Shown piece by piece: positions 5,718 to 64,000 of a DNA stretch of 64,000 bases. The stretch comes from a virus: positions 106,057-170,056 of IMG/VR virus record IMGVR_UViG_3300011113_000664; one strand, given 5' to 3'. Position numbers and translations under genes: made by a program. Under the pieces are notes generated by a model, which did not search any database, was not told the DNA's origin, and saw only the letters and a program-made list of their open reading frames with translations. The first letter of the stretch is position 1, and every line of letters starts with the position of its first letter.

Positions 5718-5731
5718 AAAGTAAATATAGA

Positions 5732-6848: not shown

Positions 6849-6865
6849 AATATTATAATACGATA

Positions 6866-29157: not shown

Positions 29158-29193
29158 TTTTTTTAATAAAAAATTTTCTTTAGATTTGCCAAC

Positions 29194-38667: not shown

Positions 38668-38691
38668 ATATTGTCATATATTTGACAATAT
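38668..38691 (+). promoter_or_regulatory. Bacteroidota-type -7 element (TATATTTG) inside a 9-bp inverted repeat
   Basis: ATATTGTCA-tatatt-TGACAATAT overlaps the start codon of the first gene of the glycosylation cluster. Confidence 0.5.
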
Positions 38692-39643: not shown

Positions 39644-39644
39644 T

Positions 39645-42772: not shown

Positions 42773-42773
42773 C

Positions 42774-47103: not shown

Positions 47104-47957
47104 TGAAAATTACATTATTCAACGATAATCACAGAGGTGATTTGTTTTTAAGTAGAATGTTTATCCAACCACTACTAAATTTAAATGCTGAAATAACATT
47201 TTATCACAATCAAAATAAATATTTTTTTAAAGATATTGAAAAGAAATATTCAAATTTTAAAGAAGTTTGTGGTATACCAAAAGAGATTGATACTAAAGGT
47301 GATGATATACTTGAAAAAAATATAATAAATTGTTGGGTAGCAAAAGGTGGTGGTAAATATGTTAAAAATGAAGGTTGTTCATTTTTTGCATATAAAAACA
47401 TGGTTGATGTAATTTATAAACATTATAACTTAGACATTTATGAGAATAATGAAGAACTTTTACCAATTATAAATTTTGATTATTTAGATTCAAAATCTTT
47501 ACTTAAAGATTTTATGACTAATCTTAAAGATAGATACAAAAAAATCATATTAATATCTAATGGAAATGTTGAGTCAGGTCAAGCAATTAACTTTGATTTT
47601 AACTCAACAATTAATTTTTTAGCAAATAAAAATAAAGATTGTTTATTTTTATTAACACAAAGTACCAATATAAATTTACAAAATGTATTATACACAAGTG
47701 ATATAACAAAATTAAATCCAGATTTATTAGAAATTTCTTATATATCAACTTTTTGTGATATTATTGTTGGAAGAACTTCAGGTCCATATACATTTTGTAC
47801 ACATAAAGATAATATAATGGACAATAATAAAACATTTATATGTTTTTCTTTTAATAAAAAAGAAGGTGCTTGGTTTGAAGATGGTAATGCCAAATGGATA
47901 TGGTCTGATAATCAAAGTGTTACTAATGTTATGTCTTTATTGGACAAAAATATATGA
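47103..47957 (+). CDS. Putative GT-B glycosyltransferase (paralogue of 50671..51525)
   Basis: 'FN.NHRGDL', 'SGQA.NF', 'EISYIST..IVGRTSGPY.F'. Confidence 0.5.
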   Translation: MKITLFNDNHRGDLFLSRMFIQPLLNLNAEITFYHNQNKYFFKDIEKKYSNFKEVCGIPKEIDTKGDDILEKNIINCWVAKGGGKYVKNEGCSFFAYKNMVDVIYKHYNLDIYENNEELLPIINFDYLDSKSLLKDFMTNLKDRYKKIILISNGNVESGQAINFDFNSTINFLANKNKDCLFLLTQSTNINLQNVLYTSDITKLNPDLLEISYISTFCDIIVGRTSGPYTFCTHKDNIMDNNKTFICFSFNKKEGAWFEDGNAKWIWSDNQSVTNVMSLLDKNI

Positions 47958-48361
47958 TTATATATAACCCAACAATTGAAGAACTAAAAGATTTTTTCAT
48001 AAAAAATCAAAAAAATCAAGCAAGTTTTAGATATTTTAAAACTAGAGATTTTGGTATAATAAAAAACCATATTAAAACTATACTTTTAAAATATAAAGAC
48101 AATATAGTTGGGTACGGTCATTTAGATAAAGATGAGAACAACCAAATATGGTTGGGTATTATGGTCTGCGATGAATGTGTTGGTCTTGGTTATGGTAAAA
48201 TCATAATGAATGAACTTTTAAAAAATCAAGATTACAATATAAATCTATCAGTTGATATTGAAAACAATATTGCAAAAAAATTATATGAGAAGAATGGGTT
48301 TATTGTTGTAAAAACAACACCAACATTATATATAATGGAGAAAAATAATCGTATTTTATAA
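47954..48361 (+). CDS. GNAT acetyltransferase
   Basis: 'VGYGHL', 'GLGYGK', 'N..AKKLYEKNGF'. Confidence 0.85.
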   Translation: MIIYNPTIEELKDFFIKNQKNQASFRYFKTRDFGIIKNHIKTILLKYKDNIVGYGHLDKDENNQIWLGIMVCDECVGLGYGKIIMNELLKNQDYNINLSVDIENNIAKKLYEKNGFIVVKTTPTLYIMEKNNRIL

Positions 48362-48372
48362 TAAAAAAAATT

Positions 48373-48681
48373 ATGGCAGATACATTAGGAAATATTGTTG
48401 ACAAATTAATAACTGTTGACATGAAAATGTGGAACAATCAAGAACTTCTTTATGAAATCAGGAGAATGACATTTGAAGAATATCTTGAAAAATATTTTAA
48501 ATCCGAAGATGGTGCAGAAAAACTGTGGCAAATCCTAAAAAAAGCATGTGATTTGAATGTTCAAAGAAATCAATTAATAAATGAAGTTGATGAGAGAATA
48601 ATTGAATTAGTAAATGCAAAAATAAATGGTGAAGATTTAGATAACGGTAAATTCTTACAAAGAACACATAAAACATATTAA
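48373..48681 (+). CDS. DUF4254-like small helical protein
   Basis: 'TLGNIVDKL', 'NVQRNQLINEVD'. Paralogue of 53425..53676. Confidence 0.55.
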   Translation: MADTLGNIVDKLITVDMKMWNNQELLYEIRRMTFEEYLEKYFKSEDGAEKLWQILKKACDLNVQRNQLINEVDERIIELVNAKINGEDLDNGKFLQRTHKTY

Positions 48682-49772
48682 TGATACCAATTTATAAACC
48701 ATATCTTACAAAGGAGAATCTAAAATATGCACACGAAGCAATAGATTCGGGTTGGATTTCATCTCAAGGTGAATATTTAGATTTTTGTAAAAATGAAATT
48801 AAAAATATAATTGGCTCAAATAAAATTATTTTAACAAACAATGGTACTACTGCTACACATTTATTAGCAATAGCATTAAAATATAAATATCCACACATAA
48901 ATAAAATTATTGTACCAAATAATGTTTATGTAGCTGCATGGAATTCATTTTTATTTGATAAAAATTATGAGTTAATACCAATTGATGCTGATTTAGATAC
49001 TTGGAATTTTAATGTTAATGAAATAGAGGACAAAGTAGATGAGAATACAGCTATATTAGTTGTACACAATATTGGTAATGTAGTAAATGTTCCTGAACTT
49101 AAAAGACGTTTTCCAAATACGGTTATTATTGAAGATAATTGTGAAGGATTTTTCGGTAAATATGAGGATAAATATACAGGTACAGAGTCATTTGTATCTT
49201 CTGCATCATTTTTTGCTAATAAAACAATTACATCAGGAGAAGGTGGATTATTTATGACAAATGATGAAGAAGTATTTGATTACATTAACACTGTTAAAAA
49301 TCAAGGACAATCTCAAGAAAAGTTTGTACATAATATTCTTGGATATAATTATAGAATGACAAACATTCAAGCTGCTATTCTATATGGACAATTATTAAAT
49401 ACAAAAGAAATAGTTGAAAAAAAGAAAATTGTATTTAATGAATACAAGAAAAATCTTAAAGATGTTGAATGTATTTCTTTTCAAAAAGAAGAAGAGAATA
49501 CTAAACATTCAATGTGGATGTTTGGTATAAGAATTAATAATTTTAATATTAATAAAAAGAAAGATTTAGAATTACATCTTTATAAATCAGGTATTGAGAC
49601 AAGACCAATGTTTTATGATATAAAAAAACATGATTATTTAAAAAATATTAATACTGAAACTAAAAATGCTGAATTATTACAAACACAGTGTGTGATATTA
49701 CCATCATTTCCAAATCTAACAAAAAGTCAAATAAATTTTATTTGTGACAAAATAATAAAAATAGTAAAATGA
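48681..49772 (+). CDS. DegT/DnrJ/EryC1 sugar aminotransferase (perosamine synthase-like)
   Basis: 'SGWISSQG', 'NGTTA.HL', 'IEDNCE', PLP lysine 'SFFANKTITSGEGG', 'GYNYRMTNIQAA'. Confidence 0.9.
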   Translation: MIPIYKPYLTKENLKYAHEAIDSGWISSQGEYLDFCKNEIKNIIGSNKIILTNNGTTATHLLAIALKYKYPHINKIIVPNNVYVAAWNSFLFDKNYELIPIDADLDTWNFNVNEIEDKVDENTAILVVHNIGNVVNVPELKRRFPNTVIIEDNCEGFFGKYEDKYTGTESFVSSASFFANKTITSGEGGLFMTNDEEVFDYINTVKNQGQSQEKFVHNILGYNYRMTNIQAAILYGQLLNTKEIVEKKKIVFNEYKKNLKDVECISFQKEEENTKHSMWMFGIRINNFNINKKKDLELHLYKSGIETRPMFYDIKKHDYLKNINTETKNAELLQTQCVILPSFPNLTKSQINFICDKIIKIVK

Positions 49773-50674
49773 AGAAAATATTATTTGTTAATCATACACA
49801 ACAAAGATGTGGTGTGTATCAATATGGTAATAGATTATTTAATATTTTAAAAAAATCTAAAAATTATGAATTTATACTAATTGAATCAGACAATGCTTCT
49901 GATTTTTTTAAAATTTACAATGATATTAAACCTGATGGTGTTGTTTTTAATTATCATGGTATAACTTTAAAATGGGTAGACAATGAAGTTTTAAGTAATA
50001 TTACTGTGAAAAAATATAAAGTTGACCATGAATCACCAGGAAATTTACCATTTGATTATATTATTGAGCATGAAATTATATCAAATAAACTTGGTATTGA
50101 AAGACCAATATTTGAAGATGTTCAATTGGAATATAAAAAAAATGATATACTTACATTTGGAAGTTTTGGTTTTGGTTTTAAATATAAAGGATTTGAAAAT
50201 GTATGTGCTACAATAAATAATTTGTACGATGAGGCAATTATTCGTTTAAATATAACATTCCCATTTTATAGTGACCCAAATGGACATATTTCATATGAAA
50301 TTTCACAAAGTTGTCGTTCTGTTATTACAAAACCAAATATAAATTTAATAATAACACATGATTTTTTAAGTGAATTAGATATTTTAAATTTTATGTCGAA
50401 TAATGATATGAATTTATTTTTTTATGAAAATGCAAATGGTAGAGGTCTTTCATCCGTAATGGATTACGCTCTTAGTATTGATAGACCTGTTGCAATAACT
50501 AAGTCTCACATGTTTAGACATGTTTTTGATGCATCACCATCTATTTTTGTTGAAGACTTAGATATTGACACCATTTTAAAAAATGGTACTGAACCAATAA
50601 AAAAATTAAGAGAAAAATTTTCAAATAAAAAATTAATAAATACATTTGAAAATATATTAAATAATACTTTATGA
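49769..50674 (+). CDS. Putative GT4-like glycosyltransferase
   Basis: 'CGVYQYG', 'GSFGFGF.YKGFE', 'GLSSVMDYALS'. Confidence 0.6.
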   Translation: MKKILFVNHTQQRCGVYQYGNRLFNILKKSKNYEFILIESDNASDFFKIYNDIKPDGVVFNYHGITLKWVDNEVLSNITVKKYKVDHESPGNLPFDYIIEHEIISNKLGIERPIFEDVQLEYKKNDILTFGSFGFGFKYKGFENVCATINNLYDEAIIRLNITFPFYSDPNGHISYEISQSCRSVITKPNINLIITHDFLSELDILNFMSNNDMNLFFYENANGRGLSSVMDYALSIDRPVAITKSHMFRHVFDASPSIFVEDLDIDTILKNGTEPIKKLREKFSNKKLINTFENILNNTL

Positions 50675-51525
50675 ATATTGTTAATTTTTTTAATTGCGCT
50701 CATAATGGTGATTTACATATTTCTAGAGAATATGTTAAAGATTTAATTAATATATTAAATCCTGATAAGGTATATTATCATCATTTTAATAATCCTTCAT
50801 TAATGAAAGACTTAAATTGTGAATTTCTTCAATTTGTTCGTCATCCTAATAATATATTCATACCAATTATGAATTCAGATACAGAATTGTACATAGATAC
50901 TTGGATTGGTCAAAATAGAGAAGCATTAAATTTATATTCAGGATGTAATTTCCCATCACTTTACAAAGTGATGAGACATATTTATGAAAAATTTAATATT
51001 ACCCATTTAATGAAGGATATTGAATACTATATACCTTCTATTAATTATGAAATATTTGAAATCGAAAAAGCAAAAAATTATTTTGAAAATAATAAAGATA
51101 AAAAATTTATTTTAGTATGTAATAACGATGTAAGGTCTGGTCAAGCTTCTAATTTCAATATGAATAATCTTATTGAAATGATTTGTGATAAATACACAGA
51201 TTATATTATTATAGCGACAAATAATATGGGAGGTACTATTGATAGAGAAAATTTTATTTTTGCTGATGATATTATTGGTGATACATCAAGCAGTTCAAAT
51301 TTAAATGAAATATCATATATAAGCACTAAAACTTCTCTAATAATTGGTAGGTCATCAGGACCATATAGTTTTACTTTAGTAAAAGAAAATTATAAAAATA
51401 ATAAATTTATTTGCTTGTGTGGTTCTTATGAATATGCTTGGTATTCAAATACAGGTGAAGATATTACATGGAGTGATAATTATGATGAAAACAATATTAT
51501 GGATTTAATTTCTAAAAAAATATGA
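50671..51525 (+). CDS. Putative GT-B glycosyltransferase (paralogue of 47103..47957)
   Basis: 'FNCAHNGDL', 'SGQASNF', 'EISYIST..IIGRSSGPYSF'. Confidence 0.5.
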   Translation: MNIVNFFNCAHNGDLHISREYVKDLINILNPDKVYYHHFNNPSLMKDLNCEFLQFVRHPNNIFIPIMNSDTELYIDTWIGQNREALNLYSGCNFPSLYKVMRHIYEKFNITHLMKDIEYYIPSINYEIFEIEKAKNYFENNKDKKFILVCNNDVRSGQASNFNMNNLIEMICDKYTDYIIIATNNMGGTIDRENFIFADDIIGDTSSSSNLNEISYISTKTSLIIGRSSGPYSFTLVKENYKNNKFICLCGSYEYAWYSNTGEDITWSDNYDENNIMDLISKKI

Positions 51526-52742
51526 AAGAATTATTTACACTAGGAGAACTATATGTTTCCGATTTTTTAAAAGATGGTGAATCTCCAAGAGGAGATAAAA
51601 CAGAAATGAAAATGATGTTAGAAGAAAATGGTGCTGTAAGACTTGAAAAAATAGCACCTCTTGATACCATGTATGGAAAATATTGGTATAGGTCTGGCAT
51701 TAATAATACAATGAAGGTAGAATTAAAAAATATTGTTGATTCTATAATGAGTGTTATTAAATTAAAAGAAAATGACCTTTGGATTGATATTGCATGTAAT
51801 GATGGTACAATGCTTAGTCAAATACCAAATTATTTAATAAAAGTCGGTATTGACCCTGTAGATGATACATATAAAGTAGAATCTGAAAAACACGCAAATC
51901 TAATCATACAAGATTATTTTAGTTCTGATGTTTTTAAAAAATCAAAGTTTGGTAAATTAAAAGCAAAAGTTGTAACATCAATTGCAATGTTTTATGATTT
52001 AGAAGAACCAAAAAAATTCATAAATGATATTAAAGAAGTATTAGATGATAATGGTATTTGGGTTTTACAATTATCATACACACCACTAATGATTAAACAA
52101 ATGGCATTCGATAATATATGCCATGAACATGTTTATTACTATTCACTTTTTAATATTAAAAATATATTTAAAGAATGTGGTATTGATATTGTTGATGTAC
52201 AATTAAATGATATAAATGGAGGTTCTTTCAGGATTTATTGTATGAAAGAAATAGCCGATAAAACAAAATTTAGTACACAACCATACAGAGATGTATGTAA
52301 TTTTAGAATAAATTCACTATTAGAATATGAAAAAACTCTAAATTTAGATAAAGAAAAAACATGGGTTGATTTTTATAATAATATAAATCAACTAAAAGAA
52401 AAAACAGTTTCTTTTATAAAAGAAGAGAAGGCTAAAGGTAAAAAAATATGGGGGTATGGTGCATCAACAAAAGGAAATACATTACTCCAATATTTTGGTC
52501 TTGACAATACATTAATTGATGGTATTGCTGAAAGAAGCATCTATAAATTTGGATTAAAAACCGTAGGTACTGAAATACCAATTTGTTCTGAGGATGAAAT
52601 GCGTAAAGCAAATCCCGATTATTTATTAGTATTACCTTGGCATTTTATTAATGAATTTATAGAAAGAGAAAATGAGTTTTTAGATAATGGCGGTAAATTT
52701 ATAGTACCATGTCCAAAATTTGAAATAATTGGAAAAAAATAA
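51522..52742 (+). CDS. NDP-sugar C-methyltransferase (NovU/TcaB9-like)
   Basis: 'YWYRSG', 'DIACNDGT', 'FDNICHEH', 'NGGSFR', 'GYGASTKGN', 'PDYLLVLPWHF', 'GGKFIVP.P'. Confidence 0.85.
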   Translation: MKELFTLGELYVSDFLKDGESPRGDKTEMKMMLEENGAVRLEKIAPLDTMYGKYWYRSGINNTMKVELKNIVDSIMSVIKLKENDLWIDIACNDGTMLSQIPNYLIKVGIDPVDDTYKVESEKHANLIIQDYFSSDVFKKSKFGKLKAKVVTSIAMFYDLEEPKKFINDIKEVLDDNGIWVLQLSYTPLMIKQMAFDNICHEHVYYYSLFNIKNIFKECGIDIVDVQLNDINGGSFRIYCMKEIADKTKFSTQPYRDVCNFRINSLLEYEKTLNLDKEKTWVDFYNNINQLKEKTVSFIKEEKAKGKKIWGYGASTKGNTLLQYFGLDNTLIDGIAERSIYKFGLKTVGTEIPICSEDEMRKANPDYLLVLPWHFINEFIERENEFLDNGGKFIVPCPKFEIIGKK

Positions 52743-52756
52743 ATATATTTATTGAT

Positions 52757-53425
52757 ATGGTATTTTATTCACAGGCTAATCAAGATAAATGGGTTTATAA
52801 TGTACTATCACATAAAAAAAATGGATTCTATGTTGATATAGGTGCGTATGATGGTATACAGACAAGTAATACATATATTTTTGAAAAAGATTTAAATTGG
52901 AAAGGTATTTGCATTGAACCAAATGCAGATGCGTATCAAAATTTAATTAAAAATAGAACTTCAAAAAATATTATGTGCGCTTTATCTGATTATGATGGGT
53001 TTTGTAATTTTTTAGGTGATAAAATAATTGATAAAAACAATTCAAATACACCATGCTATACACTAGAAACACTTTTGACACAAAATTCAGCTCCAAAAGA
53101 AATTGATTATATATCAGTAGATGTTGAAGGGCATGAATATGATATACTTAAAGATTTTGATTTTAATAAATGGAATGTAAAACTTATGACAATTGAACAT
53201 AATTTTTACATTGAGGGTTCAATCTATAAAGATAAAATATATGATTTAATGACAAAAAATAATTTTCTTAGAATAGTTGAGGATGCGGTTTGTTTAGATA
53301 GTAATCCTGCTTATTTTAATAAAATTTACGAGGATTGGTATATAAATAAAGAATTTTATGATTCTTTGAATAATGAAATTAAATTTAAAATATCAACTCA
53401 ACCAAAAGACAAAACTTTATATTAA
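52757..53425 (+). CDS. FkbM-family methyltransferase
   Basis: 'SQ..QD', 'VDIGAYDG...SNT', 'IEPN', 'IDYISVDVEGHE'. Confidence 0.85.
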   Translation: MVFYSQANQDKWVYNVLSHKKNGFYVDIGAYDGIQTSNTYIFEKDLNWKGICIEPNADAYQNLIKNRTSKNIMCALSDYDGFCNFLGDKIIDKNNSNTPCYTLETLLTQNSAPKEIDYISVDVEGHEYDILKDFDFNKWNVKLMTIEHNFYIEGSIYKDKIYDLMTKNNFLRIVEDAVCLDSNPAYFNKIYEDWYINKEFYDSLNNEIKFKISTQPKDKTLY

Positions 53426-53676
53426 TGGAAACAATAGGTAATTTAATTGATAAACTTTCAGTAGTCAATATTAGAATATGGATGGCTGAAGATATTAAAA
53501 GAAATAAAGAAGCATCTGATAAAGAAATTGCAGATGCAACTAGAATTACAAATGTTGCTAATTCACAAAGAAATGATTTAATACAGGAAATAGATGAAAA
53601 ATTAAATCATATGGCAAAGACAGGTGAATTACAAAAATTATATAAACAAGGCTCAAATAAAATGTATGGAAAATAA
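53425..53676 (+). CDS. DUF4254-like small helical protein
   Basis: 'ETIGNLIDKLS..NIRIW..ED', 'NSQRNDLIQEID'. Confidence 0.6.
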   Translation: METIGNLIDKLSVVNIRIWMAEDIKRNKEASDKEIADATRITNVANSQRNDLIQEIDEKLNHMAKTGELQKLYKQGSNKMYGK

Positions 53677-54460
53677 TTTAGTAATAGGCAACACATCACA
53701 ACTATCATACTATTTTCCACAAAATTATACAAAAATTTCATCAAGAAGTATTGATGAAAATATTTTCAATAAAAATTGGGATTCGATATATATAACATTT
53801 GCTAAACAAAATGTTTTTGATACTACGGATTCAAATTTTGTTGATATTAATACATATTATACACTAGATTTAATTAATAAACTCCTAGATTTATCTAATA
53901 AAATAGTTGTTTATACGAGTTGTGAAATGTTTAATAATCATTATGGACCAATTAGTATTGATACATTACCATCTTTTATACCTAAGAGTAATATAAACTA
54001 CACAAATTATATTCTTTCTAAATTTTTATTGACACAGTATATAAAAGAAAATAGAAAGAAGGATAAAAGATGGGAAAAAGTAATTATCATTCATCCATTC
54101 AATTTTGAATCAATTTATAAAAATAAATATTTTTTATTTGGTAAAATAACTAATTCAATAGTTAATAAAGAGATTATTGAAGTTGGTAATGTAAATTTTT
54201 ATAGAGATATTCTTCACGCATCAAGAATGGTTGAAGAATCAATAAAATCAGAAACTGATTTGGTAATTGGTTCTGGAAAATTATTAAATTTAAAATTTAT
54301 AATAAAAGAAATATATTCGTATTTTAATATGGATTATAATTATTTTGTTAAAGAATCCATAGGTAATAATAATAAAGTAAATTTTTATTATTCTTCTAAA
54401 GTATTAGAATATAATTTTATAGAAGATATGATTTTAGATATAAAAAAATTAATTAAATGA
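53666..54460 (+). CDS. Degenerate extended-SDR (NAD-dependent epimerase/reductase-like)
   Basis: 'LVIGNTSQL', YxxxK 'YILSK', 'RDILH', 'IGSG'. Start at ATG 53666. Confidence 0.6.
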   Translation: MENNLVIGNTSQLSYYFPQNYTKISSRSIDENIFNKNWDSIYITFAKQNVFDTTDSNFVDINTYYTLDLINKLLDLSNKIVVYTSCEMFNNHYGPISIDTLPSFIPKSNINYTNYILSKFLLTQYIKENRKKDKRWEKVIIIHPFNFESIYKNKYFLFGKITNSIVNKEIIEVGNVNFYRDILHASRMVEESIKSETDLVIGSGKLLNLKFIIKEIYSYFNMDYNYFVKESIGNNNKVNFYYSSKVLEYNFIEDMILDIKKLIK

Positions 54461-55425
54461 AAAAAGCACTTATAACAGGTATTAATGGACAAGATGGGTC
54501 ATATTTAGCAGAATTTCTTTTAGAAAAGGGATATGAAGTTCATGGTACACTAAAAAGAAATTCCGTTTCTGAAAATCAGACATCAAGATTAAATTCTGTA
54601 TATGATAAATTAATTTTACATTATGCTGATATGACTGATTTAGCATCACTTATTACAGTAATTAATAAAATTAAACCTGATGAGGTTTATAATTTAGCAG
54701 CACAATCACATGTTAGAATTAGTTTTGACCAACCAATTTATACGGCAAATGTTACAGGTGTTGGTACATTAAATTTATTAGAAGCGGTTAAAAATATTAA
54801 TCCCGATATAAAAATTTATCAAGCATCCTCATCCGAAATGTTTGGAAATTCAATTGATGATGATGGGTTTCAAAGAGAAACCACTTGCATGAATCCAGTA
54901 TCGCCATATGGTTGTGCTAAAGTTTTTTCATATAATATTACTAGGAATTATAGAAATTCTTACGGAATGAAAATTTGGAATGGAATCCTTTTCAATCATG
55001 AATCACCAAGGAGAGGTACTAATTTTGTAACAAATAAAGTTGCAAAAGCAGCAGTTAGAATTAAACTAGGGCTTCAAGATAAACTTTATTTAGGTAATTT
55101 AGAAGCAACAAGAGATTGGGGTCATGCCAAAGATTATGTTGCAGCAATGTGGTTAATGCTTCAATCTGAAAAACCCGATGATTATGTTTGTGCAACAGGG
55201 ATATCACACTCTGTAAGAGAACTTTGTGAGTATGTTTTTTCAAAACTTGGTTTAGATTACAAAGATTTTGTTTTACAAGATTCAAAACATTTAAGACCGG
55301 AAGAATTAAATCAACTTAAGGGTGACCCAAGTAAACTTGTAAATAAATTAGGGTGGAAACATGAATATACTTTTGAATCCATGCTTGATGAAATGATTGA
55401 TTATTGGTTGAATTTTTATTCATAA
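54457..55425 (+). CDS. gmd: GDP-mannose 4,6-dehydratase
   Basis: 'ALITGINGQDGSYLAEFLLEKGYEV', 'YNLAAQSHV', 'YQASSSE', 'SPYGCAK', 'GILFNHESPRRG', 'RDWGHAKDY'. Confidence 0.95.
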   Translation: MKKALITGINGQDGSYLAEFLLEKGYEVHGTLKRNSVSENQTSRLNSVYDKLILHYADMTDLASLITVINKIKPDEVYNLAAQSHVRISFDQPIYTANVTGVGTLNLLEAVKNINPDIKIYQASSSEMFGNSIDDDGFQRETTCMNPVSPYGCAKVFSYNITRNYRNSYGMKIWNGILFNHESPRRGTNFVTNKVAKAAVRIKLGLQDKLYLGNLEATRDWGHAKDYVAAMWLMLQSEKPDDYVCATGISHSVRELCEYVFSKLGLDYKDFVLQDSKHLRPEELNQLKGDPSKLVNKLGWKHEYTFESMLDEMIDYWLNFYS

Positions 55426-55439
55426 ATATTTTATATTTG
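55424..55439 (+). promoter_or_regulatory. Promoter-like element AAATATTTTATATTTG (copy 1)
   Basis: Contains TAnnTTTG, lies 4 nt before ATG 55444, and is identical to 61138..61153. Confidence 0.55.
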
Positions 55440-55443
55440 AAGT

Positions 55444-56781
55444 ATGATTGATAAAATTGCACATCTCGCTGATGTCCATTTCCAAAATAATTTGGATAGA
55501 TTAGCAGAACAAAAACATATTTCAAATCTGACAATTGAATCACTTAAAAAAGATAACCCTGATTTAATTGTAATTGCAGGAGACTTATTTCATAATTATG
55601 TAAAACCATTCAATGAAATCAATGTTATTGCAGGTGATTTCTTAAATTCTTGTGCTATGATAGCACCTGTTGTGATTATTGATGGTAATCACGATATAAT
55701 GAAATCAAATCTCAATAGAATGTCATCTATTAAGATGCTTGTTGAGATTATTAACAATCCTAATATACACTACTATGACTCAACAGGTTTTTTTGAACTT
55801 GATAATATTGTTTTCGCTACTTGGTATCACCCTGATAGAAAATCCCCTTGGCTTGAATTCAATGAAGAAGAGCGCAATAATAATAAGTATTATATTGACC
55901 TTTTCCATGACCCAATTAATGGATGCTATCTCCAAAATGGACAGCTTCATACCGATAGCAATCTTGTTTCTCTTGCTGATTTTAAAGGTGATATTGTAAT
56001 GGCAGGAGATATACATCTCCAACAATCATATCAAAAAAATGGAAAAGAGTTTTTTGCTTACCCATCGTCATTATATTGTACCAATTATGGCGAAGGTGAT
56101 AATGCTTTTCATGGTTATCTTTTATGGGATATTAAAACAAAGACTTTTGAAAAGAAAGAAATAATATCAGATTATAAATACTTTAATATTTATATAAATG
56201 AAGATTATGATTATGAAAATCTTAATATTGAACTTGAAAATGTTGGAAAATATAATCATCTTAAAATTCATTGGATGGACCAATACTCAACATTTACCAA
56301 TGAGAATAAACAAAAGATAAAAAAGTATTTAGAGTCTAACTATGGTGAATTTGTCACCATTAAATTTGACAAATCAAAGATTTTAAATAAATCTTTAAAG
56401 ATTAAAGAATTTGATGAAACCATTGATTTAAATAATGATGATAGTGTAAGACAAGAATTTATAAATTTTTTGAAAGCTAAAAATCATCAAGAAGATTTTA
56501 TAAAAGATGTTTTAGCACTTGATAATGAAATATCATCTTTAATTGAAAAGGATGTAGAGAATCAATTCTATGATTGGAAAGTAAAAAAGATTGTTCTTGA
56601 TAACTTTAAATCACATGGTGAAAGATATGAACTTGATTTAACAGATAAGAATGGAATTATTCAAATCTATGGAGAAAATCAAGTTGGAAAATGTGTTCAT
56701 CCTGAAACAAAAATCAACATTAGATTCAATAAAGAAGAAATAATTGCAAAACTTGGATATTTACCTGAATTTTTAAAATAA
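55444..56781 (+). CDS. sbcD: SbcD/Mre11 (gp47-like) nuclease fused to the N-terminus of SbcC/Rad50 and a split-intein N-fragment
   Basis: 'HLADVH', 'IAGDLFH', 'GNHD', 'GDIH', 'YPSS..YGE', then SbcC start 'WKVKKIVLDNFKSHG...IIQIYGENQVGK', then IntN 'CVHPETKINIRF...'. Confidence 0.9.
   Translation: MIDKIAHLADVHFQNNLDRLAEQKHISNLTIESLKKDNPDLIVIAGDLFHNYVKPFNEINVIAGDFLNSCAMIAPVVIIDGNHDIMKSNLNRMSSIKMLVEIINNPNIHYYDSTGFFELDNIVFATWYHPDRKSPWLEFNEEERNNNKYYIDLFHDPINGCYLQNGQLHTDSNLVSLADFKGDIVMAGDIHLQQSYQKNGKEFFAYPSSLYCTNYGEGDNAFHGYLLWDIKTKTFEKKEIISDYKYFNIYINEDYDYENLNIELENVGKYNHLKIHWMDQYSTFTNENKQKIKKYLESNYGEFVTIKFDKSKILNKSLKIKEFDETIDLNNDDSVRQEFINFLKAKNHQEDFIKDVLALDNEISSLIEKDVENQFYDWKVKKIVLDNFKSHGERYELDLTDKNGIIQIYGENQVGKCVHPETKINIRFNKEEIIAKLGYLPEFLK
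56692..56778 (+). mobile_element. Split intein N-fragment (IntN, 29 aa)
   Basis: Block A-like CVHPETKINIRF starts with Cys immediately after the Walker A Lys; the ORF stops 29 aa later. Confidence 0.85.
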
Positions 56782-57887
56782 TGGACAAAACCGTATTACT
56801 TACAATCATTTTTGGTGGCGCATTAGTTTACTTCAAACAATTCTTTATTTTTGTTTTAACAACTTTAAGAGATAGTGTTATCTGTTCAATGAAAATTGAA
56901 GAAAGTTCTTTTTTCTTTTATTCCTTTCAAAACTTTATTTTAACCGAAAAACAGAACTCAGTTAAAAATCTTTATTATAGAACATTTTTCGATGGTTGGA
57001 TTGCAGGAGAAGATAATGCTAATGTAAATATGTTTTATAACTCAGGATTTGTTTACATCAAATTTAAAGGTAATAGATTCTTAGTTTTAAAAAATGCTGA
57101 AAACATTCAAAATAGTATCACACCCTATAAAAATAGTAAACATATGTTTATGATTTTTTGTAGAAATAAGTCTGTTTTAAAAGAATTATTAGATTATGTC
57201 GATGTAACATATGGTAATAAATACATAAAATACTTTTATAATTTTAATGGTGAAATAAAATGTGCAGGTAGAGTAATAAATAAAACTTTTGATAATATTT
57301 ATCTTGATAATAATATATCTGAGTTTCTTAAAAATGATTTAGATAGATTTAACTCAACAAAAGAAAAGTATGATAAGTATGGAATTAGATATAAACGAAC
57401 ATATCTTTTTTATGGTCCTCCAGGAACAGGTAAATCATCACTGTCTTTAGGTATATCTAATTATACTAAAAGAGATATATTATCAATTAACTTATCTAAA
57501 GATATGACAGATGCAAATCTTATTGCTTTGATTTCTGATAGACCAAAAAAATCAATTGTTTTATTTGAAGATATTGATTGTTTATTGGAGGATATTAATA
57601 GAAAAAAAGAAGAAAAGAAAGAATCTGAAATTAAAATTTCACTTTCTTGTATTTTAAACGTATTAGATGGTATATATACACCTAATGATGTTATATTCAT
57701 AATAACCACTAATGAACTTGATAAAATTGATGATGCTATTAAAAGAAAAGGTAGAACCGATGTTTTAATGGAGATTAAAAAACCAAGTGAAAATTTAATT
57801 GAAGACTTAAAAATAAAATTTAATATAGATAACAATAAAACTTTTGATAATATATCAGAACTCCACGAAGAATTACTAAATTTATGA
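56781..57887 (+). CDS. BCS1-like AAA+ ATPase with an N-terminal membrane anchor
   Basis: N-terminal hydrophobic helix, 'GIRYKRTYLFYGPPGTGKSS', 'VLFEDID', 'LNVLDG', 'TTN', 'R.GR.D'. Confidence 0.85.
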   Translation: MDKTVLLTIIFGGALVYFKQFFIFVLTTLRDSVICSMKIEESSFFFYSFQNFILTEKQNSVKNLYYRTFFDGWIAGEDNANVNMFYNSGFVYIKFKGNRFLVLKNAENIQNSITPYKNSKHMFMIFCRNKSVLKELLDYVDVTYGNKYIKYFYNFNGEIKCAGRVINKTFDNIYLDNNISEFLKNDLDRFNSTKEKYDKYGIRYKRTYLFYGPPGTGKSSLSLGISNYTKRDILSINLSKDMTDANLIALISDRPKKSIVLFEDIDCLLEDINRKKEEKKESEIKISLSCILNVLDGIYTPNDVIFIITTNELDKIDDAIKRKGRTDVLMEIKKPSENLIEDLKIKFNIDNNKTFDNISELHEELLNL

Positions 57888-58126
57888 CAACAAACATAAC
57901 AAACGAAAACGGACTCATTAAAGCAACCTATGATTCATCCAACATTGCATCATCAACCTATGATACCACAAACTATACATTACATATTACATTTGTAAAA
58001 GGAAACTTAGTGTATAAGTATGATAATGTAAATCCTGAAGATTACAATCAACTACAAAGTGCTGAATCCACAGGAAAAGCATTCATTGACTCTATTAAAA
58101 ATAAATATACAGGAGAAAAAGTTTAA
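57884..58126 (+). CDS. KTSC domain protein
   Basis: 'SSNIASSTYD....LHITF..G.VYKY.NV....Y..L..AESTGKAF...IK'. Confidence 0.85.
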   Translation: MTTNITNENGLIKATYDSSNIASSTYDTTNYTLHITFVKGNLVYKYDNVNPEDYNQLQSAESTGKAFIDSIKNKYTGEKV

Positions 58127-58425
58127 AAACTTTTGCTCACCTCTATTCTATCTCTTATAGCATTTATAAGATATTGCTTTGGCATTGGTACTCTTATAAT
58201 ATTTCCAACCTCAATATCACCTTCAGACAAATATTGAGGATTTGCAAGCAATATAAATCTACCAAATGCAGCATTATTATAATAAGTGTATGCTAACCTA
58301 TCTAAGCGATTACCAACATTCCATTCAACATAAACATCATTTGGTGATTCTTGTATTTTAAAGAACGGTAATGGTGCAAACGTGTTATCTGTTATGAAAT
58401 CGGAGTAAATATTAAATTCATCCAT
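58123..58425 (-). CDS. LysM-like baseplate protein (gp53 / tail X-like)
   Basis: 'RLDRLAYTYYNNA..GRFILLANP...I.VG..IRVP'. Confidence 0.75.
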   Translation of the reverse strand: MDEFNIYSDFITDNTFAPLPFFKIQESPNDVYVEWNVGNRLDRLAYTYYNNAAFGRFILLANPQYLSEGDIEVGNIIRVPMPKQYLINAIRDRIEVSKSF

Positions 58426-58440
58426 TATAATCTATTTACT

Positions 58441-59238
58441 TTAAATAGATAAATAATCATCCTTTAATTTTTTATAAACCAATTTAAAAGATTTAAGAGA
58501 TTTTTTAATATCCTGTTTTTTATATTTGTTATTTGTGATTTCACAAATCATATCAATAACCCTATTATTGATAAAGAATAAACTCATTTTTGATTCGGTT
58601 GGTTCATTAATGTATTTAAAATTTTCAATGATTGAAATTAATGAATAACCAACATTAACATCAATTTCTTTTAAAGTTTTGTCTGATTCTATTTTGTTTT
58701 TAATTTCAGTACATAGACCAAAAAATACGATTTTTATATAATTATTATCACTATCTTCATCAAGATTTTCATTTATCTGATAAGATAAGGATAAATCCCT
58801 TTCAAATAAATCTATATTTTCCACAACATCATCACTACTTTTATCTTGATTAAAGTTTCTTTCTGAAATATGTTTTGCTTCATTTTTACAAATTGTAGAG
58901 AAGTAGGAAAATGCCTTTGATTTAACACCCTTTTTATTAATCTTTTCAGGATTAAACATGTGAAGATTATTGAAGGCAAAAATCAAAAGGTCATTTTCCA
59001 TATCCTCTATTGTGTAACGCTTTGAAAAATAAAGAAAATAGGATTTAGCAGTAAAATAAGCAAGTTTTTTAAGAGCCTTATGGATTTCCTTTTCATAAAT
59101 TTGATTTTTTTCATCCAATGAGTAGTCAGGGCTATTATATCTAATAATAGCCTTTTCTGTTGCATCGGTAAAATATTCCTTTACAGACCCCGGCTTTGCT
59201 TTCCTGCCTCGCCTACCTTTTTTTACTTCCTCAGACAT
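58441..59238 (-). CDS. Phage sigma factor (T4 gp55-like late sigma, putative)
   Basis: 'YFTDATEKAIIRYN', 'FNPEK....SKAFSYFSTICKN' resemble sigma region 2 of gp55-like proteins. Confidence 0.6.
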   Translation of the reverse strand: MSEEVKKGRRGRKAKPGSVKEYFTDATEKAIIRYNSPDYSLDEKNQIYEKEIHKALKKLAYFTAKSYFLYFSKRYTIEDMENDLLIFAFNNLHMFNPEKINKKGVKSKAFSYFSTICKNEAKHISERNFNQDKSSDDVVENIDLFERDLSLSYQINENLDEDSDNNYIKIVFFGLCTEIKNKIESDKTLKEIDVNVGYSLISIIENFKYINEPTESKMSLFFINNRVIDMICEITNNKYKKQDIKKSLKSFKLVYKKLKDDYLSI

Positions 59239-59240
59239 TA

Positions 59241-60044
59241 TTAAATAATCGGTGCTTCTTGCTTCTTTGCATATGCTTTATTTCTATCATGAGGCCAAAC
59301 ATATTCTTTTTTAGCAAGATTCCACCAAAAAGTAACCTCATCTGCTTCCATCTTTGTTTGTTCATTTAAGTAAGAATTTTCTCTACCGAATTTTCTTAAA
59401 TAACCAATTTTAGGAATGGTATAGGTAATACCATCAATATTGGTAAATCGCATCAAAAATTCATAAACAAAACTAAGTTTGATGGATGGTTTTAAAGCAC
59501 CCGATTCTTCAAATTTTTCTTTTCTAATTGCTGCACCGCTAATTGAAACAAGATTATAATTCATCAATGTTTCCATAGTCAAATAACCATGTCTATCATT
59601 TGTTAAATCCTTTGCCCAATTAACTTCATTGATATAACGATGAATCTTTTTATCTAATGTGGTATCCGCAATAATTGGAAGAAACATATCCACATTTGAC
59701 ATTTCTTCCATATGATTTGAAAGATTTTCAAAATAGAACGGAGTTAATTCATCATCAAAATCCAAAACCATAAAGAATGAAGTCTTAACTTCTTCTACAG
59801 CTTTATTAATTTGAGATTGGATATTATCAGATGATTCATCATTAATAACAAATCTTACCTTTCTTTCAGTTTTAATTTCTTTTTTAGTTTCTGTCGTTGT
59901 AACAATTACTACCTCTTTAGGTGCATAACCATTTTTTTGATTAAAGACAGATTCTAATGCTTCTGAAAATAATTGTGTTTCCGCTTCATTTTCAAATTTA
60001 TGAATTGGAATAATTACGGTTAAATCTAAAATATTATTTTTCAT
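59241..60044 (-). CDS. Glycosyltransferase family 2
   Basis: 'LTVIIPIH', 'ALESV..Q', 'VLDFDDE'. Confidence 0.75.
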   Translation of the reverse strand: MKNNILDLTVIIPIHKFENEAETQLFSEALESVFNQKNGYAPKEVVIVTTTETKKEIKTERKVRFVINDESSDNIQSQINKAVEEVKTSFFMVLDFDDELTPFYFENLSNHMEEMSNVDMFLPIIADTTLDKKIHRYINEVNWAKDLTNDRHGYLTMETLMNYNLVSISGAAIRKEKFEESGALKPSIKLSFVYEFLMRFTNIDGITYTIPKIGYLRKFGRENSYLNEQTKMEADEVTFWWNLAKKEYVWPHDRNKAYAKKQEAPII

Positions 60045-61107
60045 TTTCTATTACTTGTTTAATTAAATTTTTTCTATTTTCAAAAATGTTTGAAAAAGCT
60101 TGAATTAGTGTTTTTTCATGATTTTCAACTGTATATTCAGATGAAATTTTTTCCATGTTTTGATAAACAACTTCAGGTACATTATCAACCATCCATTCTT
60201 TAACAACAACACCAAGCTGTTCAGCAAGGATTTCAAGTGAATTTGACCAAACTGCTGTGTTATCTACCTTTAAATAATCTTTTTCAAGTTCAGGAATCAT
60301 ACCAATAATTACAGCACCGCTTTTCATTGCTTCCAAAGGAAGTGTACCAAATCCTGCATCTTTATCAAGCCAAAGCAAAACAGGAATTTCACCCATTTTT
60401 TCAGCAAGTTGCTCTCTTGTAATAAAAGGTTCAGCACCTTGCATTCTTTCAAACAATACCCAAGAAAGTTCAGGATATTTCATAAAGAAAATTTTAGATA
60501 ATCTTTTAATATCAGACTCACTTCTTGAAAAATACATAATAATTGGCTTTTTAATTTTCTTTGGTTTAAAATAATCAGGAATACCAATTTTATATGTTTC
60601 AATATTGTAATTTACCCTTGAATTTCTTTGAATAAATTCTTTTAGTTGTTCAGAAGTTGTAAGAATGGTATTAAAACCCCATGCTGCCCAAGTATGATTC
60701 GGTGGAAGTGAATCAAGCATATATGTTTGTGATTGACAAAGAACAATTCTTTCGCATTGAATTTTAGCATCAAAAATCTGATGCATAACATTCACAAAGA
60801 ATTCAGGTACAATCAATACATCAGTTGGTGCTACATTAATGTTGTCTTTCTTCGGTGAAAGATGTGGAACATTTCTCAAATCTTCTGATAAATAAGAAGG
60901 AATTTTGAATTCAGCTTCTTTTTCATCCTCCCCTGTAATAAGGAAAGCATTGTAATTATTTTTTCTTAAAAAATAACAAATATTATATATCTCTTCTACA
61001 GCCATTGAATATACATTCTCAGGAATAGAAGGAACATATAAATAAATGTTGAAATTATTTGCTTCAACATTTGATAACAGTTCTTTTAATTTTTCTACTT
61101 TATCCAT
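60034..61107 (-). CDS. Glycosyltransferase (GT4-like; paralogue of 38690..39643)
   Basis: 'LIVPEFF', 'LCQS', 'AGFGTLPLEAMKSG'. Confidence 0.75.
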   Translation of the reverse strand: MDKVEKLKELLSNVEANNFNIYLYVPSIPENVYSMAVEEIYNICYFLRKNNYNAFLITGEDEKEAEFKIPSYLSEDLRNVPHLSPKKDNINVAPTDVLIVPEFFVNVMHQIFDAKIQCERIVLCQSQTYMLDSLPPNHTWAAWGFNTILTTSEQLKEFIQRNSRVNYNIETYKIGIPDYFKPKKIKKPIIMYFSRSESDIKRLSKIFFMKYPELSWVLFERMQGAEPFITREQLAEKMGEIPVLLWLDKDAGFGTLPLEAMKSGAVIIGMIPELEKDYLKVDNTAVWSNSLEILAEQLGVVVKEWMVDNVPEVVYQNMEKISSEYTVENHEKTLIQAFSNIFENRKNLIKQVIENEK

Positions 61108-61137
61108 TTTTTATTGATTTTTAATTAAAATACGACA

Positions 61138-61153
61138 AAATATTTTATATTTG
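61138..61153 (+). promoter_or_regulatory. Promoter-like element AAATATTTTATATTTG (copy 2)
   Basis: Lies 4 nt before ATG 61158 and is identical to 55424..55439. Confidence 0.55.
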
Positions 61154-61157
61154 GGTT

Positions 61158-61724
61158 ATGAAAACTTTTGCAATAGAGGTAAACGGAATTTTAAGAGATT
61201 TTATAAAAAAATTTGAACAATATTATAAGATTGAGTTTGCAAACAGGGATATACAATACCCTATTGACCCTTTTAATCCTTTGCTTTCATTTCACTTTGA
61301 AGATAATGAATTAGAGGATTTCTTATTTCAATACTCATATGAGTTATTTGCAAAATCAACTCTACCATCAAAGGAAATCATTGCTCAAATAAATCAGATA
61401 TATCCTGAATTGTCTGATAATCAGTATAAAGTGATAATTATATCAAGAGAAGGTGTTAAATTCAGAAATTTAACTGCATTCTATATATCAAACTTTTCAG
61501 CAGGGTTTTATTTTGATGAGATGAGATTTTTTAATAAGTTTGATGAATATGTAAATCAAAATTTTGATTATATCTTAACAGCTAATCCAAACTTATCAAA
61601 ACTATCTTTTGATAATACAAAAGTTATTCTTTTTGACCCTGAAAAGAAATACGAAAATAAAACCACAGTAAGCAATATTATTGAAATTTTCCCTATTCTT
61701 GAAAATGACAGAGAAGAAAATTAA
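61158..61724 (+). CDS. 5'(3')-deoxyribonucleotidase (NT5C)-like HAD-fold protein, degenerate
   Basis: N-terminal 'FAIEVNGILRDF' matches the HAD motif I position (normally DxDGV), followed by 'VIIISR'. Confidence 0.5.
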   Translation: MKTFAIEVNGILRDFIKKFEQYYKIEFANRDIQYPIDPFNPLLSFHFEDNELEDFLFQYSYELFAKSTLPSKEIIAQINQIYPELSDNQYKVIIISREGVKFRNLTAFYISNFSAGFYFDEMRFFNKFDEYVNQNFDYILTANPNLSKLSFDNTKVILFDPEKKYENKTTVSNIIEIFPILENDREEN

Positions 61725-62091
61725 AATTGGTGATTTACAGTTTTTAAAAAATTTACTTGATAAATTAAATATTGAAGTTGAAACACCATATGGATATAAT
61801 AAAATATTAGCATATGATGTTACATCTAAAAATTGTAGATATTGGACATTAGAAACCGAAACAGGAAAAAGGATTACAACATCCATAGACCACTTATTTA
61901 AAAATCATTTAGGTCAATTCGTTCCATTAAAAAATATAATGGAAGATACAATCAATAATAAAATTTTGAGTATTGATAGATTAGAATCTATTAGATTTAT
62001 AGAAACAGACCCAAGACAAGTAATAGATTTAGTAGACATTCAAGTTGAGGGTTCAGGTCAATACTATGCAAATAACATACTTGTTCATAAT
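61705..62091 (+). mobile_element. Split intein C-fragment (IntC, 129 aa, no endonuclease)
   Basis: 'VETPYGYNKI', block B 'ITTSIDHLF', block F 'LVDIQVEGSGQYYAN', block G 'ILVHN', then +1 Ser. Confidence 0.9.
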
Positions 62092-64000
62092 TCAAATATT
62101 TTAAATTCTATTACATATGGTCTTTATGGTACTACCTTTGATACTCTCAAAAAAGAGAAGAACAGAGATAATAAATTTATCAACAACAATAACAAAAAAG
62201 ATTATTCAGAAGTTCAGTTAATTATTGAAATTAATGGGGAAGATTATGTAGTAAGAAGAAGAACTGAAAGAAAATGGGATAAAACACATACAGAAATAAC
62301 CTCTTGTTCAACCAAAACTTACTTTAATAAGTTAGATTCAAATGGTGAAATAATTGATGAAAATAATCTTTCCGAACAAGATAAAGCAAAAACCCAAAAA
62401 CTTATTGAGCAATCAATTGGGGATTTTGATGAATTTATCACAAAATCCTTAATTAATGCTGATACTCTTAATGATATTCTTACAACCGACCATGCTAAAT
62501 TCTTAGACTCAATTCTTAGAGATACAGGTCTTGATATATTTGAAAAGAAACTTGAAGTATTTAAAGCATATAAGAAAAACGAATATAAAAAAGAAAGTCT
62601 TTTAAATATTTCTGTTGATAGATACAATCAATTAATTGAGGATGCAAAAAATTATATTGAAAACTATAAAACAGAAATAAAAGATAGAAAAGAAAAAATA
62701 AAAGTTTTAGATGAAAGAATTAAAAATGGTGAAACACATGTTGAAAATACAATTAAAACTTTAAAACCAATTGATTCTCAATTATCTAAACTTGATATTA
62801 ATCAAGTTAAAAATGATATAAATAAACTTATTAATGATAAGGATGAAAAGATTAGGTCACAAAAGGACCTTTTAAAACAAATTGAAGAACTCAATAAGTT
62901 TGTATTGGATGAGGATTTATATAATTCATTAAAAGAAAAATCAAGTTCATTTAATGGTTGGTTAATTTCTAAAAATGAACAAATAAAAGATTTAAATAAA
63001 GAAATCAACAATATTACAAATGATATTTCAGTAATAAACGGTTATATACATAAAGAAAATCTTGCAGTATCAAAAATAGATTCTCAAATTGATAACGATA
63101 GATTAGGACTAGAGAGGCAAATTGATTTAATCGAAAGAGATATTTCTTTATTAGAAGATAGCAAAGTTTGTCCAAGTTGCAATCGTTTAAAGGATGAAGA
63201 TGCGATTGCATCAATTAGAGTAAAGGTTGATAAATTAAAAGGAGATATTCAAAAAATTAAAGATGACATTAAAAAAGAAACCTTTAAGAAGAAATATGAA
63301 TTAGATATTAAATCAATTAATAAAAATATAAGTAAATATAAAGAAGATATTAAAGATAAAGAATTAATGATTGAAAGTAAAAAATCATTAATAAAAGCAT
63401 TTGATGATGATATTAAAAAAGAAAGTGTAACAATTACAAAGGTAAAAGAAAAGATTACAAAGATTGAATTAATCATTAAAGAGATTGAAAAAAGAAATAG
63501 ATTCAAACAGGAATATGATAATATTCCAATGTATATTGAAAATATTGAATTGAAAATCAATCAAAAGAATGATTTACTTTCAAAGTATGATATTAATATA
63601 GTTTACATCCAAGAAAATAATAAAATTCAATCAAAGATTGATACATATAAAGCAAAAGTTAATGAGTTTAAAAATGAAAAAGAAACATTAAAAACTCAAA
63701 CCAATGATTTTGAATATAAAATTGAATTTGCTAAGAATGAAATTCAAAATTATAAAGATACAATTACAAAGTATTTAGAGCAGCAAAGACAAGAATTAAT
63801 CAGAGAGGAATATCAAAATTGTATTCATAGAGAAGGTATTCCAAGTACTCTTCTAAAGAAACTAATCCCAAAAGTAAATATGTATCTTCAAGGATATACT
63901 GAAGATATTGACTTTAATGTTTTCTTTGATAATGAACTTTTCTTTCAAATGTCAAAGAAAGACACTCCTGAAATCATTCAGAATGTTATTTCAGGTTCAG
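61705..64000 (+). CDS. sbcC: Split-intein C-fragment fused to SbcC/Rad50 (gp46-like) ATPase lacking the first part of Walker A; 3' end runs off the window
   Basis: ATG 61705 opens MTEKKIKIGDL...; IntC ends at ...LVHN (62091), then 'SNILNSITYGLYG', long coiled coils, zinc hook CPSC (63169-63180) and signature-like 'ISGS' at the window end. Confidence 0.9.
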   Translation, partial: MTEKKIKIGDLQFLKNLLDKLNIEVETPYGYNKILAYDVTSKNCRYWTLETETGKRITTSIDHLFKNHLGQFVPLKNIMEDTINNKILSIDRLESIRFIETDPRQVIDLVDIQVEGSGQYYANNILVHNSNILNSITYGLYGTTFDTLKKEKNRDNKFINNNNKKDYSEVQLIIEINGEDYVVRRRTERKWDKTHTEITSCSTKTYFNKLDSNGEIIDENNLSEQDKAKTQKLIEQSIGDFDEFITKSLINADTLNDILTTDHAKFLDSILRDTGLDIFEKKLEVFKAYKKNEYKKESLLNISVDRYNQLIEDAKNYIENYKTEIKDRKEKIKVLDERIKNGETHVENTIKTLKPIDSQLSKLDINQVKNDINKLINDKDEKIRSQKDLLKQIEELNKFVLDEDLYNSLKEKSSSFNGWLISKNEQIKDLNKEINNITNDISVINGYIHKENLAVSKIDSQIDNDRLGLERQIDLIERDISLLEDSKVCPSCNRLKDEDAIASIRVKVDKLKGDIQKIKDDIKKETFKKKYELDIKSINKNISKYKEDIKDKELMIESKKSLIKAFDDDIKKESVTITKVKEKITKIELIIKEIEKRNRFKQEYDNIPMYIENIELKINQKNDLLSKYDINIVYIQENNKIQSKIDTYKAKVNEFKNEKETLKTQTNDFEYKIEFAKNEIQNYKDTITKYLEQQRQELIREEYQNCIHREGIPSTLLKKLIPKVNMYLQGYTEDIDFNVFFDNELFFQMSKKDTPEIIQNVISGS

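Follow-up and report, generated by a model that had tools for sequence, protein, structure and literature searches.

How can a phage obtain a single Mre11-Rad50 (SbcD-SbcC) nuclease-ATPase from a gene that lies in two pieces, 4.9 kb apart? The question is raised by the final 64 kb (64,000 nucleotides, hereafter the window) of the 170,056-bp linear viral contig IMGVR_UViG_3300011113_000664 of IMG/VR (positions 106,057 to 170,056), whose source is an uncultured marine jumbo phage (G+C content approx. 25%; CheckV completeness of the contig approx. 52%). The N-terminal half of the protein is encoded by an open reading frame (ORF) of 445 amino acids (aa) at 55444..56781, and the C-terminal half by an ORF that starts with an ATG at 61705 and runs off the contig end (61705..>64000). 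A preliminary description of the window had read these ORFs as parts of one gene whose products are re-joined by a split intein; both proved to lie where it placed them, and all the strings that it quoted were correct. Our analysis revealed that the locus carries a conserved, atypically (S1) split class-1 intein, which interrupts the Rad50 Walker A motif of a fused Mre11-Rad50 gene after the Lys and before the Ser/Thr. The two halves very probably trans-splice, and without splicing the enzyme would presumably be inactive.

The half-genes are composed of the following parts, where IntN and IntC denote the N- and C-terminal intein fragments (window coordinates, as throughout).

55444..56691, + strand: N-extein, 416 aa, comprising the Mre11/SbcD nuclease domain and the start of Rad50 as far as the Lys of Walker A (GENQVGK); assigned from Pfam Metallophos, phrog_35725 and motifs

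56692..56778, + strand: IntN, 29 aa, with Cys1, the 12-residue β1/β2 core CVHPETKINIRF and the 17-residue helical tail NKEEIIAKLGYLPEFLK

61705..62091, + strand: IntC, 129 aa, with β3 and helix α1 at the N-terminus and blocks B, F and G; assigned from the gp41-1 match, alignment, the ratio of nonsynonymous to synonymous substitution rates (dN/dS) and complex prediction

62092..64000, + strand: C-extein, Ser+1 followed by Rad50/SbcC with the coiled coil and the CPSC zinc hook; assigned from phrog_77 SbcC (2.6e-18) and weak NCBIfam Rad50/SMC matches

The N-extein matches Pfam Metallophos above the family cut-off (3.4e-12), phrog_35725 (9.8e-26) and, below the cut-off, NCBIfam sbcd (1e-12), and all of the Mre11 phosphoesterase motifs (DVHF, GDLFH, GNHD and GDIH) were located in it. 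The Walker A sequence GENQVGK forms residues 410–416 of the N-half (56671..56691) and is directly followed by the Cys1 codon (56692..56694), while the stop codon of the N-half (TAA) lies at 56779..56781. Within IntC, block B (S-I-D-H) occupies residues 60–63, block F (DLVDIQV) residues 108–114 and block G (V-H-N) residues 127–129, so the three blocks are present in the 129-aa fragment as first described; V-H-N and Ser+1 together span 62083..62094, with the Ser+1 codon at 62092..62094. The zinc hook of the C-extein is encoded at 63169..63180. A short IntN with its own stop codon, joined by an IntC that has its own ATG and holds blocks B, F and G, is the layout of an atypically split intein, for which IntN lengths of 15–37 aa have been given, as opposed to the long IntN and short IntC of typical split inteins (PMC13014065).

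If both intein pieces are removed, so that residue 416 is joined to Ser130 of the C-half, the sequence GENQVGK/SNILNS is obtained (the slash marks the junction), which aligns without a gap at this point with GENQQGK/TTIIDA of a contiguous 1,202-aa fused Mre11-Rad50 encoded by a 735-kb uncultured phage (LR756501). The restored Walker A motif noted in the preliminary description is thus upheld by alignment to intein-free homologues. The latter fall into at least 453 protein clusters, none more than 46% identical, and carry Pfam Metallophos, AAA_23 and SMC_N; they match the N-half from residue 1 to approx. 418 only, i.e. all of it but IntN. The joined protein would have 1,143 aa, as deduced via a relative of the locus (L003) whose C-extein is full-length (727 extein residues, with the Rad50 signature motif, Walker B and H-loop), and this length lies inside the range of 1,083–1,260 aa found for nearly all of the best 120 of the 453. 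A single-chain nuclease-ATPase resembling the predicted product also occurs in a cultured phage, Tenacibaculum phage PTm1 (ORF-075, 1,318 aa), where it is annotated only as a metallo-phosphoesterase. Unlike the window locus, the jumbo-phage genes of PTm1 and LR756501 are contiguous and lack an intein.

The identity of the intervening sequence as an intein is supported by several comparisons. IntC alone gave the gp41-1 intein (chain 6qaz; E = 1.7e-7, residues 27–129) as its best sequence match in the PDB. At the same GK/C...HN/S site, a fused Mre11-Rad50 designated P0010 contains a contiguous intein of 158 aa, which equals the sum of the two window fragments (29 + 129); its N-terminal part resembles the window IntN, including the tail motif, and five residues connect it to an IntC-like start (M-K-K). 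A profile of such contiguous homologues matches NrdJ-1 (1.2e-13), gp41-1 (4.7e-12), VidaL (6.8e-12) and the CatC chain 6dsl (4.9e-9). The model of P0010 residues 408–577, built with 16 homologues, reached a predicted local distance difference test score (pLDDT) of 92.2 and a predicted template modelling (TM) score of 0.86. In a Foldseek search with this model the best PDB match was VidaL (6vgv; E = 2.5e-11, TM score by target 0.88); NrdJ-1, gp41-1 and other inteins came next, and the top 29 PDB matches were all inteins. The Hint fold assumed for the window intein is therefore supported by proxy, in the model of its contiguous homologue, while the intein family model of Pfam stayed below its cut-off on IntC. 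AlphaFold prediction of IntC by itself (5 sequences) was poor (pLDDT 65), and since partial disorder and a shallow alignment could not be told apart as the reason, it was not used.

We also predicted the complex that the preliminary description had suggested modelling, with IntC plus 11 extein residues as one partner and 12 extein residues plus IntN as the other, each with its own alignment, in three runs. The halves are predicted to associate, with a score of 0.85 against 0.00 for the best of three controls, although split-intein complexes are already present in the PDB, so that the score may reflect likeness to known structures rather than provide independent evidence. Of 80 solved complexes, 58 attained a mark of 0.85, as did 2 of 110 mismatched pairs; these counts are only rough because our own alignments were used. 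The runs agreed in at least 85% of contacts (partner pLDDT at least 74), and in the modelled interface IntN residues 6–12 lie against IntC residues 3–8 and 23–26, with further contributions from IntC residues 127–130 and the last residues of the N-extein.

The model of P0010 also allows the split site to be placed. Its elements include β2 (intein residues 7–11), helices at 14–21 and 26–29, β3 (38–40) and α1 (41–51); the window break maps between residue 29 and residues 30–37, and the family profile places the start of the VidaL IntC opposite that of the window IntC. The break would therefore fall in the β2/β3 loop, before helix α1, and in this model the site is of the S1 type, as in VidaL and PolB16, to which this position has been assigned; AceL-TerL and GOS-TerL, which the preliminary description had named as type examples, are split after α1 at S2 (PMC13014065) and are thus not the closest parallels. 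By the same model the 17-residue tail of IntN is an insertion in the β2/β3 loop. Its motif is common to the window, two contiguous homologues (P0010 and P0031) and a further split locus (L015); other sequences take its place in further lineages, and the 17-aa IntN of a distant relative (L014) lacks it.

The two-ORF split recurs in nine other independent assemblies, and comparison with these relatives shows which residues have been kept. Cys1 does not vary among the relatives or among 16 contiguous homologues. Equally invariant across the relatives are block F (DLVDIQVEG.G.YYANN) with its Asp, the His-Asn pair and Ser+1; the Ser and His of block B do not vary in one IntC alignment (A2), nor does the His in another (A3). 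Class-1 chemistry based on Cys1, His-Asn and Ser+1, as originally proposed, thus has all its residues in place. IntN is 88–95% identical among relatives, and identity in the middle of IntC falls to 59–63%. Pairwise dN/dS was 0.11 for IntN and 0.20 for IntC overall (0.37 in the variable middle, 0.045 in blocks F and G), and 0.05–0.07 for the flanking exteins (N-extein 0.046). Both intein halves are under purifying selection, and together with the conserved catalytic positions this is what a functional intein in a functional gene would be expected to show. Anatomy, conservation, excision and the fold of the homologue all support the initial claim that a naturally split, short-IntN intein occupies the Rad50 Walker A motif.

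Several observations weigh against this interpretation. The Pfam Intein_splicing model applied to IntC alone gave E = 1e-3 and 19.4 bits, below the 35.8-bit cut-off (no Pfam family was matched by the C-half as a whole), block B has Ser where Thr is more usual, and the His common in block F is absent. The C-extein is cut by the contig end, so that the window copy ends before the Rad50 signature motif, Walker B and H-loop and its completeness cannot be shown; this copy has the Walker A motif (after joining), the coiled coil and CPSC, and the C-terminal head motifs are present only in relatives such as L003. Finally, no second Rad50-like gene was found in the 170-kb contig, where the locus is single-copy, but as the contig is only approx. 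52% complete, the rest of the genome may hold another, intact Rad50 gene. Apart from IntC, no further intein was detected in the contig.

As the sequence is a metagenomic contig, the 4.9-kb separation might be an assembly artefact or the mark of a chimera, with the true gene contiguous. The same gene order between the halves was found in assemblies from different samples and sources (IMG/VR, JGI and ENA). Five IMG/VR contigs (L003–L007), with N-halves 91–94% and C-halves 73–84% identical to those of the window, have in each half its own stop or start codon, as in the window, and spacers of 3,999 to 5,754 bp; a 210-kb JGI contig (L011) and a 135-kb ENA contig (its layout judged from gene calls alone) show the same order. 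The distant relative L014, with extein identities of 54% and 37%, IntC identity of 38% and an IntN of only 17 aa, still keeps homologues of four reverse-strand spacer genes between its halves. This recurrence, extending to L014, excludes misassembly for practical purposes and indicates that the arrangement is old; the spacer is genuine, as first presumed, and we assign an artefact a negligible probability. The gene upstream of IntC in a further contig (L008) was considered as an N-half and rejected.

It might also be argued that the locus is a decaying relic, i.e. that both ORFs are non-functional remnants in a phage that can now do without an Mre11-Rad50 of its own; in favour of this, the gene is broken up and its window copy stops short at the contig end. 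We consider this very improbable, given exteins with a dN/dS of approx. 0.05–0.07, ORFs that stay open in the nine other assemblies down to 37–54% identity, and the full set of C-terminal ATPase motifs in relatives. Somewhat less remote, yet still improbable, is a two-chain enzyme whose parts are held together non-covalently by the intein halves without splicing. The tight IntN-IntC interface that is predicted would allow assembly without chemistry, and fragmented ribonucleotide reductases are reported to offer a precedent for the non-spliced assembly, via interaction domains, of a phage gene product made in pieces (PMC3045599). Residues needed for chemistry only (Cys1, the penultimate His, the terminal Asn and Ser+1) are nevertheless invariant and under strong purifying selection. 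Moreover, an unspliced complex would leave approx. 158 residues in the P-loop between Lys and Ser, and in P-loop ATPases such an insertion should block nucleotide binding.

Trans-splicing, the reading that we prefer, would proceed as follows. Two precursors would be made from the separate genes 4.9 kb apart. IntN would contribute strands β1 and β2 and the helical tail, and IntC the rest of the Hint fold; on docking, the IntN strand TKINIRF would be inserted between IntC residues 3–8 and 23–26. An N-S acyl shift at Cys1 would be followed by transfer of the N-extein to Ser+1, cyclization of Asn129 and an O-N shift. The product would be one chain of approx. 1,143 aa with an intact GENQVGK-S P-loop.

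The mechanism is of a known kind. What distinguishes the locus is the host protein, the helical IntN tail and the long-standing separation of the halves by ordinary genes without an endonuclease. VidaL (PDB 6vgv/6vgw; IntN of 16 aa) resembles the window intein in being class-1, Cys-dependent and S1-split with a short IntN (PMC13014065). No PDB entry matched the model of the contiguous homologue better in structure, yet the identity is only approx. 22%; the window intein differs from VidaL in its +1 residue (Ser) and in the length of IntN, which reaches 29 aa because the 17-aa helical tail follows β2. Like the window intein, AceL-TerL, GOS-TerL and the consensus Cat intein are of phage origin, with IntN of 25, 37 and 30 aa, respectively, and a long IntC of 104–115 aa (PMC11766414); unlike it, they are split at S2 after α1 (PMC13014065), reside in the terminase large subunit and have Cys at +1. 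Phage-type genes of DNA metabolism broken by split inteins, including gp41-1, were described by Dassa, London, Stoddard, Schueler-Furman and Pietrokovski in 2009, and there a free-standing homing-endonuclease ORF lies between the halves (PMC2677866); in the window this place is taken by seven unrelated genes without an endonuclease match. The 2009 paper lists no Rad50/SbcC case but describes an SbcD-like gene, which is split by a Vsr-like ORF and has no intein.

The seven spacer genes are listed below.

56781..57887, + strand: AAA+ ATPase, 368 aa (Pfam AAA, 3.5e-19)

57884..58126, + strand: KTSC-domain protein, 80 aa (Pfam KTSC, 3.8e-15)

58123..58425, − strand: 100-aa protein, weakly LysM-like or baseplate-wedge-like (phrog_7145, 6.3e-8); homologue in L014

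58441..59238, − strand: 265-aa protein with a very weak sigma-70-like match below the cut-off (NCBIfam TIGR02937, E = 0.011); homologue in L014

59241..60044, − strand: family-2 glycosyltransferase, 267 aa (Pfam Glycos_transf_2, 5.1e-9); homologue in L014

60034..61107, − strand: 357-aa protein without a match in Pfam, PHROGs or NCBIfam

61158..61724, + strand: 188-aa clade-specific ORFan (103 clusters of homologues, none of them named or with a Pfam domain)

None of the seven matches a homing-endonuclease family in Pfam, PHROGs or NCBIfam, although a degenerate endonuclease may be present among the three ORFs without an assignment. The term 'fractured gene', applied to the locus in the preliminary description, is therefore not appropriate in the sense of Dassa et al., which calls for a homing-endonuclease gene between the halves. 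The syntenic part of the spacer comprises the KTSC protein, the 100-aa and 265-aa proteins, the glycosyltransferase, the 357-aa protein (83–88% identical in close relatives and 41% in L014, with no match in the 735-kb relative LR756501) and the 188-aa ORFan. The AAA+ gene, which overlaps the IntN stop codon as TAATG, is present in some other close relatives and absent from L004, L011 and the 135-kb ENA contig, and L007 has an extra FkbM methyltransferase gene just downstream of IntN. The point just downstream of IntN is thus an indel hot spot. The end of the 188-aa ORF overlaps the start of IntC by 20 nt, and translational coupling of the two is possible. More than 100 clusters are close to this ORFan, on contigs as long as 243 kb, and they point to a jumbo-phage clade that is abundant and little known.

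Candidate expression signals were found in front of both half-genes:

55432..55439, + strand: TATATTTG motif, candidate TAnnTTTG-type promoter element 4 nt upstream of the N-half ATG; kept in 4 of 5 aligned relatives

61146..61153, + strand: the TATATTTG motif again, 4 nt before the ATG of the 188-aa ORF whose end overlaps the IntC gene

At the second site the core TATATT is invariant and the full TAnnTTTG is present in 5 of 7 aligned sequences (L011 and L014 differ in the last bases); an AATACG box upstream is conserved with it. A TAnnTTTG sequence 4–5 nt before the ATG was found in 4 of the 55 window genes (29181-29188, 38677-38684, 55432-55439 and 61146-61153), against 0.44 expected. Across the window TATATTTG is not enriched (20 against 14.7) and is remarkable only for its placement directly ahead of a few start codons; a scan of the window for sigma-70 promoters and terminators did no better than with shuffled sequences (77 against 66.9 ± 8.6). 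TAnnTTTG is the −7 promoter consensus of Bacteroidota, and an element of this type would fit the matches of the N-half to Tenacibaculum and Chryseobacterium phages. These motifs are hints of a Bacteroidota host and of near-leaderless transcripts, and the two halves are possibly co-expressed deliberately, on short-leader transcripts from the shared TAnnTTTG element.

Directly upstream of the N-half there is a long run of sugar-nucleotide and glycosylation genes (38690-55425), which includes a fusion of HAD and nucleotidyl-transferase domains, C-methyltransferases and, at its end, an ORF that we take from its sequence to be GDP-mannose-dehydratase-like (54457..55425); relatives have variable sets of glycosyl- and methyltransferases at this place. 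Elsewhere in the window, a 524-aa protein encoded on the − strand (4143-5717) matches phrog_284 exonuclease (4.2e-31) and phrog_704 'DNA repair exonuclease' (1.4e-6) and no Pfam family, and may be a second nuclease of the phage. Three large ORFs (13335-15389, 20952-23363 and 24439-29157; 684, 803 and 1,572 aa) had no Pfam or PHROG match.

A search with IntC residues 1–135 against 1.84 billion representative proteins (E ≤ 1e-3) gave 99 matching proteins. Of these, 71 begin with an IntC-like domain at their own N-terminus, 52 of which are at least 500 aa long, mostly with a Rad50/gp46-like sequence (S-x-I/L-x-D/S...F/Y-G) next to it; the short-IntN arrangement, considered rare in the preliminary description, is thus that of a large metagenomic family. 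The other 28 carry the domain internally, and the 16 examined are contiguous mini-inteins of 135–178 aa at the GK/C...HN/S site. A T4-like contig that also encodes UvsY and UvsW has gp46 in two pieces, of 70 aa (40 extein plus 30 IntN) and 657 aa, with only 9 nt between them. In L015 a single 436-aa gene separates the intein halves, compared with the seven genes, on both strands, of the window.

The Mre11-Rad50 gene of L015 is apparently in three pieces: an N-terminal Mre11 piece on the − strand (16473-17265), approx. 9 kb away and ending just past GDIH, which carries an apparent separate LAGLIDADG-type intein; a 252-aa middle piece (2638-3396) with a 29-aa IntN at its end that shares the tail motif; and the IntC-Rad50 gene (4713-7265). 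A free-standing GIY-YIG (LEM-3-type) gene lies directly downstream of the P0010 Mre11-Rad50 gene (L010:7829-8284).

A role for the IntN tail can be suggested only tentatively, and we are more inclined to doubt than to accept it: by packing on the N-terminal helix of IntC, the tail might serve as a dedicated affinity module for S1-split halves that come from separate, distant transcription units without an endonuclease. If so, these inteins would form a distinct, naturally optimised subfamily, the 17-aa IntN of L014 and the 29-aa IntN of the window would provide a natural comparison, and the intein could be used as an orthogonal Cys1/Ser+1 ligation tool with a synthesisable IntN.

Only a few natural split inteins with a short, synthesisable IntN have been published, and they are prized as tools for semisynthesis and labelling of proteins; the examples named are AceL-TerL, GOS-TerL, VidaL and PolB16 (PMC13014065, PMC11766414). 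No description of an intein in SbcC, Rad50 or gp46, split or not, was found in a full-text literature search, the coverage of which does not extend to most subscription journals. The locus is one of many: such inteins at the Rad50/gp46 P-loop form a large family, apparently not described before, which offers natural variants with IntN of 17 to approx. 30 aa, Cys1/Ser+1 chemistry, and contiguous and split forms of the same intein. For the phage, the locus suggests that an essential recombination enzyme can remain dependent on trans-splicing over long evolutionary spans, with its halves parted by ordinary genes and not by the selfish endonuclease usually invoked for such breaks.

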